From: an uncultured Clostridia bacterium
GTDB lineage: Bacteria; Bacillota; Clostridia; TANB77; CAG-508
Direction of reading: 5' to 3'
NCBI GenBank assembly: GCA_944391835.1
Contig: CALXVA010000002.1
Coordinates: 1 to 60,196, forward strand
Length of the DNA stretch: 60,196 nt
Positions within the stretch are counted from its first letter, which is position 1. Each line of letters starts with the position of its first letter. Positions 33,383-43,646 of this stretch are shown here, piece by piece. The position numbers and the translations under genes were made by a program. The notes beneath the pieces are model-generated. The model did not search any database. It saw only the letters and a list, made by a program, of their open reading frames with translations, and was not told the DNA's origin.

Positions 33383-33667
33383 ATGAAATTTATATTTCCA
33401 CAAAATTATAATTTTGATAGTAAATTATTAGGATTTATTGATTATACAACTGTAATTTTAAATATTGTTTGGGGACTTATTGTCTTCTTTATAGTATATT
33501 TTCTTATTCCAAACATTACTCTTAAAATAAGTATATTTATTGTTTTATTTTTTCCTTTTGCATTGCTCAGCATTATAGGATTTAACCATGAAAGAATGTT
33601 ATATATTATAAAGTATTTATTTAAATATATTTTTTCTCCTAAAATTTATTTATACAAAAAATATTAA
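33383..33667 (+). CDS. PrgI/TcpE/VirB3-like small membrane protein
   Basis: 94 aa with two TM segments and a C-terminal tail ..ERMLYIIKYLFKYIFSPKIYLYKK, typical of the small protein that precedes VirB4 in Gram-positive T4SS loci. Confidence 0.45.
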   Translation: MKFIFPQNYNFDSKLLGFIDYTTVILNIVWGLIVFFIVYFLIPNITLKISIFIVLFFPFALLSIIGFNHERMLYIIKYLFKYIFSPKIYLYKKY

Positions 33668-33805
33668 AATCCCAATACTGCTATTTTTTCTCTATATCTC
33701 TACTTTTTTCTTGCTTTTTCTATATTATTTTACAATTTTACTAATTGTTTTTTTATATATATAATGATATAATTTCATTTATACTTTTAAGGGGAGGAAT
33801 AACTT

Positions 33806-34774
33806 ATGAAATTAGAAAGTGCAGATTTATCATCATTATTTTCAAACACATCAATACCAGATATATTTTTCTCGGAATATTTGTCTGAAGCTAGTGGTGA
33901 CTTCATAAAAGTATATTTATATATGCTATTTTTATCTAAGTATGATAAAGATATAAAAATAAATGATTTATCTAAGAAGCTGGTTTTACCTGTTAAAACA
34001 ATTCAAGATGCAGTTAAATACTGGGAAGATAAATGTTTAATAACTAAAAAAAATACTGGATATATTGTTAACAGCATTCAAGAGATTGAACTTCATAAGT
34101 TATATAAACCAAAGACAGCTTTATCTGCAGAGCAATTACAAAAATCTGCAGAAAATCAAAAAAGAGCTAAAGCAATCGACTTTATTAATAATAAATATTT
34201 TTCAGGGCTTATGCCAACTACTTGGTATCCTGAAATTGAACTATGGTTCAAGAAATATGGCTTTGATGAGGAAGTTATGATTGCATTATTCGGATACTGT
34301 TTTGATATGTCTGCTCTTCATAAAAATTATGTTCAGGCAGTCGCAGAAGCTTGGAATAAAAACAATATAAAAACATTTAATGATTTGGATGTTTATTATG
34401 AAAAACAAGAAAAGTTAAAAGTTATAGCTAAAACAATATCAAAGAAATTAGGTCTATCACGTGCCCTTACTCAATACGAATATGCATATATAGAGAAATG
34501 GGTTGTTGATTATGGTTATTCTTTAGATATAATAGAAATTGCCCTTAAGAAAACTACTTCTAAAGCTAATCCTAATTTTGATTATTTAGATAAATTATTA
34601 ACCGATTGGCATGAAAGAGGCTTTAAAACTTCAGGAGAAGTACAATCCTTCTTAAATGAAATGAAAGAGAAAAATAAAAATGTAAAACAATTGGAAAAAA
34701 CAACAGGATATAATAAATATGACCAAAGAACGTATGATAATTTAGATAATTTATATGCAAACTTAAAGAAATAA
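33806..34774 (+). CDS. dnaD: DnaD/DnaB_2-domain replication initiation protein
   Basis: Two DnaD-like repeats (..GDFIKVYLYMLFLS.., ..YEYAYIEKWVVDYGYSLDIIEIALKKT.., DYLDKLLTDWHERGFKT). Confidence 0.7.
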   Translation: MKLESADLSSLFSNTSIPDIFFSEYLSEASGDFIKVYLYMLFLSKYDKDIKINDLSKKLVLPVKTIQDAVKYWEDKCLITKKNTGYIVNSIQEIELHKLYKPKTALSAEQLQKSAENQKRAKAIDFINNKYFSGLMPTTWYPEIELWFKKYGFDEEVMIALFGYCFDMSALHKNYVQAVAEAWNKNNIKTFNDLDVYYEKQEKLKVIAKTISKKLGLSRALTQYEYAYIEKWVVDYGYSLDIIEIALKKTTSKANPNFDYLDKLLTDWHERGFKTSGEVQSFLNEMKEKNKNVKQLEKTTGYNKYDQRTYDNLDNLYANLKK

Positions 34775-34794
34775 GCTAATTTGGAGGTATCTTA

Positions 34795-35790
34795 GTGGAC
34801 TCAGTTTTAAAAAATATCTTATCACAATACGATAAGAAAAAGACGCAAGCAGAAGTTGATGCAAAAACCAGAAAAGAAGAATTATATCAGAAATACCCAA
34901 AGTTACAAAATATTGATGACAAGGTAAGTTCTTTGGCAATTTCGACGACTAAGTCTATAATAGCCAATAATGATAAGAATTTATTAAAAGAACTTAATGA
35001 TAATATAAATAGGCTAAAAGAAGAAAAATATTCTATATTAAAAAAGCTTAATATACCAGAAGATTATTTTGAACCGCATTATGAATGTCCCATTTGTAAA
35101 GATACTGGATATGTTACTAATAATGATTATTCAGTTACAATGTGTAGTTGTTTAAAACAAAAATTATATAATGAGCAATATAATAAATCTAATATTTCTA
35201 ATTTAGATACGCAAAATTTTAATAATTTTAGTGATTTACTTTATTCTGATAAAGTGGATAAAAAATATAATGCCGATATATCACCTAGAGAAAATATCAA
35301 TCAAATTAAAAATATTTGTTATAAATTTATTGCTAATTTTGATAATAAAAGTCAAAAAAATTTATTGTTTACTGGTAATACCGGACTGGGAAAAACTTTT
35401 TTATCTAGTGCAATAGCAAATGAAATTTTGAAAAAAGGTAAAAATGTGCTATATCAAACTGCTCCGGTTATGTTAGATGCAATACTAGATTATAGATTTG
35501 GTAAAACTAAAGGTTCTAATATATTAGATAGTATATTAAGTGTAGATTTACTAATAATTGATGATTTAGGTGCTGAAAATCCAAGTAATATTAAATCTTC
35601 TGAACTTTTTAATATTATTAATACACGTTTATTAAATCAAAATAAAATTACAAAAACCATAATTTCTACAAACTTAAATTTAAGAAATTTATATTCAAAT
35701 TATGACGAACGTATTATTTCTAGAATTATTGGAAATTATGATATTTGTTACTTTTTTGGTGATGACATTAGATTTAAAAATGTAAGATAA
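34795..35790 (+). CDS. dnaI: DnaI/DnaC-like helicase loader ATPase
   Basis: Zinc module CPICKDTGY..CSC, Walker A FTGNTGLGKTFL, Walker B LLIIDDLG. GTG start after GGAGG. Confidence 0.75.
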   Translation: MDSVLKNILSQYDKKKTQAEVDAKTRKEELYQKYPKLQNIDDKVSSLAISTTKSIIANNDKNLLKELNDNINRLKEEKYSILKKLNIPEDYFEPHYECPICKDTGYVTNNDYSVTMCSCLKQKLYNEQYNKSNISNLDTQNFNNFSDLLYSDKVDKKYNADISPRENINQIKNICYKFIANFDNKSQKNLLFTGNTGLGKTFLSSAIANEILKKGKNVLYQTAPVMLDAILDYRFGKTKGSNILDSILSVDLLIIDDLGAENPSNIKSSELFNIINTRLLNQNKITKTIISTNLNLRNLYSNYDERIISRIIGNYDICYFFGDDIRFKNVR

Positions 35791-35941
35791 GAAAAGTGGC
35801 TTCGCCACATGTGCGTTTTGCTTCGCGAATATGCACGGCCAAAAGAAACTTAACCTTGTTGTATAGAAAAAATCTTCGATTTTTCCTATACAATAAGAAA
35901 ATAAGAACTACTTACTTCTTATAGTAAATAGTTCTTTATTT

Positions 35942-36199
35942 TTATCTTTCTTCTTGTTTTTGCTCATTTTCCTTTTGTTCTAACTTATTCAAAGTATCAT
36001 ATATAATTTCATAAGCATCTGGAAGATTTTTATATTCTTCAGGTAAACTTGCAAAAAAGCTATTGATTACTAATTTTCTTACCTTCCACATATCTTCTTG
36101 TTTAATTGCTGTTCCTTCACTTAGAGCTCTTACCTGAAAATATAATTCAGATTCGACCATAACTCGTAGCTTATTCCTTAAACTAGCCTCATCACTCAT
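35942..36199 (-). CDS. hypothetical protein downstream of gyrA
   Basis: ORF only. GGAGG lies inside the first codons of the ORF-track version, so the second ATG (MSDEASL..) is the likelier start. Confidence 0.4.
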   Translation of the reverse strand: MSDEASLRNKLRVMVESELYFQVRALSEGTAIKQEDMWKVRKLVINSFFASLPEEYKNLPDAYEIIYDTLNKLEQKENEQKQEER

Positions 36200-36248
36200 T
36201 TTAACCTCCATCAGAGCCTTTTTGCTCTTACAACAATTTTTTTATTAT

Positions 36249-42578: not shown

Positions 42579-42691
42579 TATTTTCCTTTCCTAAAATAAA
42601 TAATTAATTCTATATTTTAATTATTTTTTTATTTAATTACTTATTTTCCTCTATTAAATTTAATAATATTTATATAAAAATATTATCGAAT

Positions 42692-43276
42692 TTATTTATT
42701 GTTTGAATAAATTCTTGTATTGAAAAAAGAGAATAAAATATTTTTTATTTGTTCCTTATCATTCATGTCTGTTGCAATGTTACCACATCTTGCTAATCCA
42801 TCTTTTATTTTAAAATATTTATTATTAAGATTTTCTATTGCATGAGTTTGAACATCAATTATTTCATTATTTTTATTTATATAGTCAATAATAATATAAT
42901 AATTTTTTGAAGATGATTTTTTATTATTATTTAATTCTTTAATAAAATTTATATATTTTTTTGATATTTCTTGGATATTTTTTTCTTCTTGAATTAAATT
43001 ATTATTTATTTGAGAAAAATGATTAGATAAATCTTCTTTATTACTTTGAATTAAAATTTGGAAATTAAAATCACAAGTTTTTAGAAATATTTTATATGAA
43101 TTTAAAATAGCTTCTTTTTCTAAATCAGATTTTAAATTAAAATTGATAGGATTTATTTTAATTATTTTTATATATCTATTATCTTTTGTTTTTATAATTC
43201 CGTTTTCCAGTATTTTATCTGTTTTCAGCCAATTTTGTGAAGAATTATTAGTATTATTTTTATTTATTTTAAATAT
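42692..43276 (-). CDS. N-terminal domain of a VirB4-like ATPase encoded as a separate ORF, with no canonical start codon
   Basis: Absent from the ORF track. The frame is open from 43297 to stop 42694..42692. ..KILENGIIKTKDNRYIKIIKINPINFNLKSDLEKEAILNSYKIFLKTCDFNFQILIQSNKEDL.. matches the N-terminus of long Firmicute VirB4 proteins. AAGGAGG is followed 8 nt later by in-frame ATA (43276), and there is no in-frame ATG/GTG/TTG near it. Confidence 0.55.
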   Translation of the reverse strand: MFKINKNNTNNSSQNWLKTDKILENGIIKTKDNRYIKIIKINPINFNLKSDLEKEAILNSYKIFLKTCDFNFQILIQSNKEDLSNHFSQINNNLIQEEKNIQEISKKYINFIKELNNNKKSSSKNYYIIIDYINKNNEIIDVQTHAIENLNNKYFKIKDGLARCGNIATDMNDKEQIKNILFSFFNTRIYSNNK

Positions 43277-43315
43277 ATAAATAACCTCCTTATTTTCTTA
43301 AATTTTGTATTTAAC

Positions 43316-43344
43316 TATATATCACATTTTATTTACAATTTCAA
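43316..43344 (-). promoter_or_regulatory. candidate promoter of the VirB4 half-operon
   Basis: Minus strand TTGAAA (43344..43339), 17 nt, TATATA (43321..43316). A TGTCGAA (Spo0A-box-like) lies at 43370..43364, about 20 bp upstream. Confidence 0.4.
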
Positions 43345-43444
43345 GCAAAATCGTATGCCAAATTTCGACATTTTTCCACATAGTGTTACAATTCACAGCA
43401 AAATTTATTTTTATAGCCAAAGTTAATATATTCAAAATTTGTTA

Positions 43445-43576
43445 GAATATGGAATGGAAAGTGATTTGAGTATAGAAATTCTAAGAAAATTTTGGTAGGG
43501 AATCTCAAAACCTTTTGAGGGTGCTACCAAAATTTTTCAAAGAATTTCTACGAAAATCAACTTGACCGACATATTC
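43445..43576. repeat. long imperfect palindrome (about 130 bp) downstream of gyrB
   Basis: Arms TAGAAATTCTAAGAAAATTTTGGTAG / CTACCAAAATTTTTCAAAGAATTTCTA around the apical hairpin CTCAAAA-CC-TTTTGAG. Outer arms GAATATGG.. / ..CATATTC. Confidence 0.6.
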
Positions 43577-43646
43577 GATACATATTTTTAATATATTAAC
43601 TTTGGCTGAAAGAACATAATAGACTTTGGCTTAATATACCAATACA

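Follow-up and report, generated by a model that had tools for sequence, protein, structure and literature searches.

In this study we describe eight genes resembling parts of a type IV secretion system (T4SS) that lie close to the replication origin of an uncultured Clostridia bacterium of the lineage TANB77 (CAG-508). They were found on a stretch of 60,196 nucleotides (contig CALXVA010000002.1 of assembly GCA_944391835.1, positions 1 to 60,196), which as a whole is called the window here. The genes are divided between two blocks on opposite strands, interleaved with the gyrase genes and with dnaD and dnaI. We consider it likely that they form a vertically inherited, chromosomally fixed T4SS of the MPF_FATA type in TANB77 (CAG-508), which came from a Clostridial conjugative element and has lost its mobile context. 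The layout is older than the common ancestor of the clade sampled, which comprises more than 100 lineages. Moreover, the T4SS-like genes are under purifying selection in the range of recF and dnaI, and only a ParA-like gene among them is relaxed.

Two blocks of secretion genes interleaved with gyrase and replication genes

The window has a GC content of about 25% and uses the standard code; its main open reading frames (ORFs) are intact under translation table 11. Its relevant features are as follows.

30133-31992, plus strand: type IV coupling protein (T4CP; VirD4/T4CP-like), 619 aa, with N-terminal transmembrane segments and the Walker A motif GTIGTGKT
32065-32427, plus strand: VirB2-like pilin candidate (B2), 120 aa, with a signal peptide and two hydrophobic helices
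32484-33380, plus strand: VirB6-like polytopic membrane protein (B6), 298 aa
33383-33667, plus strand: PrgI/VirB3-like small membrane protein (B3), 94 aa
33668-33805, no strand: junction 1, the spacer between B3 and dnaD, insertion-tolerant
33806-34774, plus strand: DnaD/DnaB-type replication initiation protein with two DnaB_2 domains, housekeeping
34795-35790, plus strand: DnaI/DnaC-type helicase loader (AAA+), housekeeping
35942-36211, minus strand: small ORF 3' of gyrA, 89 aa, poorly conserved
36249-38687, minus strand: gyrA, recognized from its translation; in loci L001-L004 the identical gene matches Pfam DNA_topoisoIV and DNA_gyraseA_C
38824-39543, minus strand: u239, a conserved all-helical clade-specific protein of 239 aa, in all cases directly upstream of gyrA
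39509-40681, minus strand: TadZ/CpaE-like ParA-fold ATPase with a receiver-like N-terminus, 390 aa, extremely AT-rich
40758-42578, minus strand: ATPase part of VirB4, 606 aa, with Walker A GTSGAGKS and Walker B DEIW
42692-43276, minus strand: VirB4 N-domain gene (TrsD/TraC-like), about 194 aa, with no canonical start codon
43277-43646, no strand: junction 2, the 370 bp spacer between gyrB and the TrsD-like gene, with a species-specific nested palindrome
43647-45560, minus strand: gyrB, end of the dnaA-dnaN-recF-remA-gyrB origin array
48690-50108, minus strand: dnaA, diverging from rpmH/rnpA at about 50 kb

Outward from the origin, the minus strand thus carries dnaA, dnaN, recF, a remA-like gene, gyrB, the TrsD-like gene, VirB4, the ParA-fold ATPase, u239, gyrA and the small ORF, and the plus-strand genes T4CP, B2, B6, B3, dnaD and dnaI are convergent on the gyrA side. 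Block 1 (T4CP, B2, B6 and B3) lies beyond gyrA and the convergent dnaI-dnaD pair, and block 2 (the TrsD-like gene, VirB4, the TadZ-like ATPase and u239) between gyrB and gyrA. An earlier note on this DNA had pointed out that the VirB3-like and VirB4 genes stand about 9.6 kb apart on opposite strands, with dnaD-like, dnaI-like and gyrA genes between them and with gyrA uncoupled from gyrB. The coordinates bear this out: the gap measures 9609 bp, and the 4959 bp that separate the two gyrase genes are filled by the VirB4 block. VirB4 consists of two ORFs with a 113-nt spacer, which corrects the earlier description. The divergence of dnaA and rpmH and a sign change of the GC skew place oriC at about 50 kb, so that the DNA to its left should be replicated leftward. 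If oriC is indeed there, dnaD and dnaI run head-on to the leftward fork, as had been proposed, and the pair keeps this orientation relative to the inferred fork throughout the clade.

It is hardly credible that this layout is an assembly artefact, which had been named as a possible refutation, or that the segment is actively invertible, since independent short-read, long-read and HiFi assemblies agree on it. At least six independent assemblies of the window's species have the identical layout, among them two long-read contigs that measure 417 and 527 kb. A related species (L017) shows the same order on its 1.70 Mb hifiasm chromosome. A VirB4 ATPase of exactly the window sequence is on record in 27 blocks, and all six places inspected agree with the window in gene order. 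Across the B3/dnaD junction, contigs drawn from four independent studies of the chicken gut proved collinear and free of differences; the sole joints in those contigs have sides of 20 nt in low-complexity sequence. No inverted form of the segment was found in the assembled contigs examined, in which a rare inverted subpopulation might have escaped notice.

The VirB4 ATPase matches the NCBIfam CD1110 family (8.6e-84, 282 bits, model positions 178-730 of 752) and, above the cutoff of 25.8, Pfam P-loop_TraG (7e-22, 78 bits); together with its Walker A and B motifs this is what is expected of a VirB4-family ATPase. The frame upstream of it supplies the N-terminal part that is absent from the CD1110 alignment. 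In relatives the orthologues of this TrsD-like frame are separate genes of 183-232 aa (Pfam PF26593, TraC-like), and the ORF is intact in all 43 fully covered species loci. The T4CP scores above the gathering cutoff of Pfam TrwB_AAD_bind (33.3 against 20.5 bits) and shares 38% identity (E 9e-113) with its counterpart in L091, a relaxase-bearing locus. The three membrane proteins gave Pfam matches under threshold: T4SS_pilin as the top match of B2 (17.8 bits), TrbL/VirB6 as the sole match of B6 (E=1) and PrgI as the sole match of B3 (E 0.059). Profiles built from the clade match the T4SS_pilin gene of L091 in the case of B2 (1e-13), and L092 (8e-23), L091 (1.5e-16) and the Vescimonas plasmid pMM35_02 (5e-9) in that of B6. 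The B3 profile matches the gene that immediately precedes VirB4 in L145, L092 and L091, and on pMM35_02 it matches the N-terminal part of the protein annotated as a PrgI-VirB4 fusion (1.3e-6).

The TadZ-like ATPase is recognized by Pfam CbiA and AAA_31. Its clade profile matches the gene directly after VirB4 in L092 (2e-66), L095 and L098, and also the TadZ-like gene beside RcpC in L091. The gene was undetected in 17 loci (L026, L034, L036, L040, L043, L050, L053, L058, L063, L065, L066, L069, L071, L073, L075, L079 and L080). A coordinate check of loci such as L034, L040 and L053 found u239 directly after VirB4, with no space left for the gene. Such absences are consistent with the relaxed constraint on this gene elsewhere. 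The u239 protein is present in 72 of the 80 species compared (see below), with an intact ORF in 70, and its AF2 model is confident (pLDDT 81, pTM 0.74). It had no Pfam or NCBIfam match, no sequence match in the PDB and no Foldseek fold match against the PDB, and its clade profile had no match in the outgroup loci. The small ORF at 35942-36211 had no family match either, is found only in the closest relatives (dN/dS 0.28-0.63) and is probably not part of the system.

The TrsD-like ORF of the window offers no ATG, GTG or TTG start; an AGGAGG is followed after 8 nt by ATA (43276-43290, minus strand). The same lack of all three codons is seen in 31 of 108 loci, and in further loci the sole canonical codon falls within the Shine-Dalgarno sequence. 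Start sites of this kind include L007 9326-9340, L009 9352-9368 and many of L011-L178. Since the pattern 'GGAGG, 7-8 nt, ATA AAA...' recurs where sister species read 'ATG AAA...', the sequences suggest that this gene may be initiated at ATA.

Conservation and constraint across TANB77

The comparison covers 160 loci from two scans, namely 80 GTDB species (gyrA-centred, one genome per species) and 80 metagenome contigs. The metagenome scan was seeded on outgroup VirB4s and mostly recovered the same clade, not the outgroup lineages themselves. The 80 GTDB species are uncultured gut Clostridia and include Clostridium sp. CAG:273, CAG:567 and CAG:571 as well as Candidatus Merdicola; CAG-273 has been placed under Clostridia; TANB77; CAG-508 (PMC13508870). 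Where the loci of these species are sufficiently long, the order is dnaN, recF, gyrB, TrsD-like gene, VirB4, (ParA-like gene), u239 and gyrA, followed on the opposite strand by dnaI, dnaD, B3, B6, B2 and T4CP and then by the same SDR/CBM/LexA/VanW neighbours. Nearly all 80 metagenome loci have the same gene order and orientation. Across species, identity goes down to 40-50% for B3 and B6 and to 65-70% for VirB4.

A gyrA tree was drawn for 121 loci with the outgroup L145 as its root, and in every locus scored block 2 lies between gyrB and gyrA. The patchy presence or variable insertion site that is a trait of conjugative elements was therefore not seen, block 2 occupying the same site in 121 of 121 loci. 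The full layout is present in 79 of the 92 loci that can be scored for all three mapped states, including the earliest-branching ones. Eleven loci have no dnaI-dnaD and block 1 after gyrA; they are nested in about five clades, which marks these losses as secondary breaks. In L031, dnaI-dnaD is kept beside gyrA, and a protease and an oxidoreductase stand in place of block 1; this locus is nested in the tree too, and its loss of block 1 is hence a secondary change. The idea of an invertible or recent arrangement does not agree with an ancestry of more than 100 lineages, among which no polymorphic orientation was found, and relatives without T4SS genes were not met among the loci examined. Two deeper low-GC lineages, L098 (gyrB 75%, VirB4 45% identical) and L093 (gyrB 69%, VirB4 50% identical), have TrsD-VirB4(-ParA-like) a few genes downstream of gyrB and no B3 upstream; the contigs of L093, L095, L097 and L098 end short of the gyrA side.

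The ratio of nonsynonymous to synonymous substitution rates (dN/dS, by NG86), calculated for the window against nine close species, was as follows.

T4CP: 0.09-0.18
B2: 0.11-0.19
B6: 0.10-0.24
B3: 0.07-0.20
TrsD-like gene: 0.09-0.23
VirB4: 0.07-0.13
u239: 0.09-0.26
ParA-like (TadZ-like) gene: 0.37-0.50
recF: 0.08-0.16
dnaI: 0.09-0.17

The T4SS-like ORFs are intact in nearly all species. Apparent truncations of VirB4 in 6 species, of T4CP in 7 and of dnaI in 14 are +1 frame switches, for example in dnaI of L033, L036, L041, L082 and L084, in VirB4 of L037, L050, L052 and L068 and in T4CP of L033 and L085. Each frame-switch junction that could be printed consists of CGG and then the remainder of a glycine codon, and in dnaI and VirB4 such junctions occur within the Walker A motif, as in GGC TTG C GGT AAG ACT. 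In the window, two overlapping ORFs for UDP-glucose dehydrogenase (9354-10638, minus strand) merge into one of 428 aa if CGGT is taken as Gly. As far as can be judged from the sequences, the switches fit a reading of CGGN as glycine. We considered whether the short VirB4, T4CP and dnaI ORFs were pseudogenes and rejected this, because the same +1 switch, with CGG at every junction that could be inspected, occurs in dnaI, which is presumed essential.

Contigs from chicken-gut metatranscriptomes (at least 97% identity) cover VirB4 (in 4 runs), the TrsD-like gene and the boundary of B6 and B3. One could imagine that the genes are the decaying remnant of an integrated conjugative element, kept only because the region is rarely rearranged. 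The lack of a relaxase or integrase nearby, the fast-evolving TadZ-like gene with its loss in a subclade and the missing canonical start of the TrsD-like gene would agree with decay. However, such a remnant would hardly keep dN/dS values of 0.07-0.24 and intact ORFs in more than 100 lineages, even where B3 and B6 have diverged to 40-50% identity, nor would it be expected to be covered by RNA contigs. We regard decay as very improbable.

Origin of the split

In the plasmid pCF10 the order prgH-prgI-prgJ corresponds to VirB6-like, VirB3-like and VirB4-like genes. The earlier note had argued from such loci that the PrgI/VirB3-like gene normally stands directly before VirB4, and this is true of the closest relatives inspected here, L092, L091, L145, L180 and pMM35_02. 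In L092 (VirB4 53% identical) the genes follow one another on one strand as B6, an unnamed gene, B3, TrsD-like, VirB4 and ParA-like, and then comes a Tad-type ATPase. L091, with a fused VirB4 of 849 aa (46% identical), reads relaxase and MobC, B3, VirB4, an unnamed gene, B2, another unnamed gene, T4CP, M23 peptidase and B6. The chromosomal outgroup L145 has B3, the TrsD-like gene and VirB4 together among housekeeping genes and divergent from gyrA. L180 and the Vescimonas plasmid pMM35_02 contain the classical Clostridial cluster, and on pMM35_02 PrgI and VirB4 form one protein. In the window the B3 homologue is not adjacent to VirB4. Because B3 adjoins VirB4 in the closest relatives outside TANB77, it is plausible from gene content and order that the two blocks complement each other as the halves of a single, formerly contiguous set of T4SS genes.

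In three of the related loci the T4SS module is followed by genes of a Tad-type pilus (TadZ-like, T2SSE/CpaF-like ATPase, RcpC): L092 5066-12744, L179 4645-7085 and L091 20481-22550. The ancestral element may accordingly have carried a Tad pilus along with its T4SS.

The dnaD and dnaI genes between the halves appear to be of chromosomal origin. The DnaD-like protein matches Pfam DnaB_2 (1.6e-28) and TIGR01446, and the DnaI-like protein matches NCBIfam NF005304 (PRK06835), the Clostridial loader family, with 345.7 bits against a cutoff of 215. With a dN/dS of 0.03-0.08, dnaD is surpassed in constraint only by the gyrases and dnaN. No counterparts of dnaD and dnaI were found in the outgroup T4SS loci, and L031 keeps both genes without block 1. 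Given the family match above cutoff, the strong constraint, the lack of an outgroup T4SS counterpart and their retention in L031, they look like the chromosomal housekeeping pair. For the same reasons we rejected the idea that dnaD and dnaI arrived with the element.

The earlier note had proposed, as one of two possibilities, that an origin-proximal inversion captured these housekeeping genes, and had stated that inverting 33.7-43.4 kb would rebuild the operon. On this view, when shifted back in time, a contiguous T4CP-B2-B6-B3-VirB4-ParA-u239 operon underwent a single old inversion with ends at the B3/B4 and gyrB/gyrA boundaries, which carried gyrA, dnaD and dnaI along. An inversion of 33668-43276 would indeed place B3 next to the TrsD-like gene, that is the VirB4 N-domain gene, in agreement with the adjacency of B3 and VirB4 in outgroups, and both junctions tolerate insertions. 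The same operation does not restore gyrB-gyrA, however: gyrA then ends up behind the T4SS genes with its strand reversed, and dnaD-dnaI between gyrB and gyrA. The predicted earlier state, with gyrB, dnaD and dnaI co-directional and gyrA opposite behind the T4SS genes, is absent from more than 160 loci. In L093 and L098, TrsD-VirB4 is already found downstream of gyrB and in the same direction, with no B3, and the B3-TrsD-VirB4 genes of L145, divergent from gyrA, correspond to neither the state before nor the state after such an inversion. The short inverted repeats for which a search at both junctions had been suggested did not turn up; between 29.4 and 46 kb no inverted repeats link the junctions, only AT-rich chance pairs and a local palindrome being present. 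Judging from gene order, one inversion cannot give both gyrB-gyrA and B3-B4, so that at least two events would be needed. A single inversion thus seems unlikely.

It might also be possible that the blocks were inserted separately, block 2 between gyrB and gyrA and block 1 by dnaD, from the same or related elements. In favour of this, block 2 is invariably found between gyrB and gyrA and is also downstream of gyrB in L093 and L098, block 1 together with dnaI-dnaD is missing near gyrA in about five subclades, and block 1 alone is missing after dnaD in L031. On the other hand, the blocks are strictly complementary with no component duplicated, relatives of both co-occur in the outgroup loci L091 and L092, and the constraint on both is similar. 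Half a T4SS would moreover have been functionless until the other half came. We judge two independent insertions to be quite improbable. On our preferred reading, a formerly contiguous gene set would have been split by two or more old events, either rearrangements or insertions, around a site of integration near the origin. It might have persisted since the parts work in trans and the products of at least two transcription units can assemble in the membrane.

Both junctions tolerate insertions. In two long-read assemblies of the window's species (L001 and L003, both at 18821-19804), B3 and dnaD are separated by an insertion sequence of the rve family (327 aa). The window itself does not have it, which makes it a strain polymorphism exactly at junction 1 (equivalent to about 33.7 kb). 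L018, L022, L027, L051 and L033 have 1-2 kb extra at junction 1, and other species carry inserts of 1-7 kb at B3/dnaD or u239/gyrA. Junction 1 of the window also contains a promoter-like TTTACT-17-TATAAT (33737-33765). In junction 2 there is a nested palindrome (43408-43614) with outer arms at 43408-43442 and 43580-43614 (86% complementarity) and inner arms at 43473-43510 and 43513-43550 (inverted repeats I5 and I13). The spacer is unalignable with that of L007 or L009, and the palindrome is absent there, so it is a species-specific insert. RNA contig X25 extends from gyrB into this palindrome. A promoter scan did no better than shuffled sequences (122 found, 128.6 expected), and a terminator scan found 6 against 2.3 expected, none of them at either junction.

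Three further observations concern the neighbourhood. Between dnaI and the small ORF, 108 bp (35789-35898) are missing from one RNA contig and from the DNA contigs of two studies; because the sides of the joint are long (197-249 nt), this is a real strain indel, beside predicted terminators. An ORF with a Bro-N domain, a phage-associated family, at 1087-1554 just downstream of tRNA-Lys(CTT) (716-791) might be what is left of a prophage or island at a tRNA. Finally, an ORF of 526 aa at 23095-24675 (minus strand), beside a VanW/G5 protein, had no Pfam match.

Comparison with known systems and possible function

Among known systems the chromosomal T4SS of Patescibacteria, the candidate phyla radiation (CPR), is close in composition. 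It is derived from MPF_FATA and consists of VirB4, a separate TrsD homologous to the VirB4 N-domain, PrgI/VirB3, VirB6 and VirB2-like components; it usually has no relaxase, is widespread in this lineage of reduced genomes and is often found beside dnaA/dnaN/rpmH (Quinonero-Coronel et al. 2025, PMC12102498). A role other than self-transfer has been proposed for these relaxase-less oriC-proximal systems, and the study mentions neither gyrA/gyrB nor Clostridia (PMC12102498). The TANB77 genes share the parts list, the separate TrsD, the lack of a relaxase nearby and the vicinity of dnaA; indeed, every part expected of this type (separate TrsD, VirB4, B3-like, B6-like and B2-like genes, chromosomal and origin-proximal, with no relaxase nearby) was found. 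However, TANB77 belongs to another phylum, its T4CP is always present, and it has in addition a TadZ-like ATPase and a helical protein specific to the clade. Its genes also stand in two blocks flanking gyrA and dnaI-dnaD and part gyrB from gyrA. The nearest VirB4 relatives inspected for context are Clostridial-type loci, and the likeness to Patescibacteria is one of parts list and position.

To the Clostridial conjugative T4SS of pMM35_02, L091 and L180 the genes are related in sequence, with VirB4 35-46% and T4CP 38% identical and with B2, B3 and B6 recognizable by profile. Those loci are contiguous, with B3 directly before VirB4 or fused to it, unlike the split genes of the window. They add relaxase/MobC (L091), M23, NlpC/P60 and C39 hydrolases, DUF5697/DUF6100, an S1 protein and SpaA pilins, none of which occur in the window. 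A VirB4 made of two genes (TrsD and ATPase) is known from the pGO1 subclass (PMC12102498). The systems of pCF10 and of the staphylococcal plasmids pGO1/pSK41 (TrsD-TrsE), compared by description only, are plasmid-borne, relaxase-linked and contiguous, in contrast to the T4SS of TANB77.

No relaxase, integrase or hydrolase domain was found among the window ORFs tested against Pfam and NCBIfam over 60 kb, in particular no VirB1-like cell-wall hydrolase and no VirB8-like/TcpC-like component, and no relaxase in the flanks of related loci. The linked relaxase or integrase of a conjugative element is thus not seen in the window, whereas L091 shows the expected pattern. In the machine as we picture it, TrsD and the VirB4 ATPase would likely form a cytoplasmic-membrane translocon with B3 and B6, B2 is likely a pilin-like surface or channel component, and T4CP likely feeds in the substrate. 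Because there is no relaxase, integrase or cell-wall hydrolase nearby, and by analogy with other systems, the machine has probably been co-opted beyond self-transfer, for example for an exchange of protein or DNA with other cells.

Several points weigh against a fixed and functional T4SS of this origin. The 282 bits of VirB4 are under the CD1110 equivalog cutoff of 325, and B2, B3 and B6 are all under Pfam thresholds, their identity coming from clade profiles and synteny. The TrsD-like gene has no canonical start in the window genome, and the TadZ-like gene is under relaxed constraint and has been lost in one subclade. The RNA contigs are unstranded and may include DNA carry-over, which makes them a weak sign of expression. 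A relaxase, a VirB1-like hydrolase and a VirB8-like component could lie elsewhere in the genome, as the relaxase-less state is shown for the 60 kb window and the examined loci. Lastly, the ancestral history may have consisted of two inversions, a translocation or two insertions.

TANB77, a small-genome gut order, has been linked to the response to cancer immunotherapy via a conserved Tad-type pilus, the cluster of which contains CpaF, TadB/C and TadE-like pilins; the study makes no mention of a T4SS (Nat Commun 2024, PMC11680825). This Tad cluster is a separate locus. It resembles the T4SS in being an order-wide envelope machine, and the TadZ-like gene of block 2 is of its type. In the literature searched we found no description of a T4SS of TANB77, or of such a layout in Clostridia. 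One might speculate that the T4SS is a cell-to-cell interaction machine which TANB77 needs as Saccharibacteria do, maybe together with the Tad pilus, and that its interleaving at oriC couples its expression to replication initiation or origin dosage; we hold this to be possible but doubtful.

In conclusion, the T4SS that probably became fixed in TANB77 would be a second conserved envelope machine of these gut bacteria. In the window it is devoid of the hallmarks of a mobile element, it lies between the gyrase genes by the origin, and it has lasted as long as the clade itself, which points to a core, non-conjugative role. The system would also be a Bacillota counterpart of the Patescibacteria T4SS. 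The head-on dnaD and dnaI would provide a case of essential genes that are stably kept against the direction of replication. As to genome evolution, the locus suggests that a multi-protein machine may remain functional after its operon has been broken and interleaved with essential replication genes.

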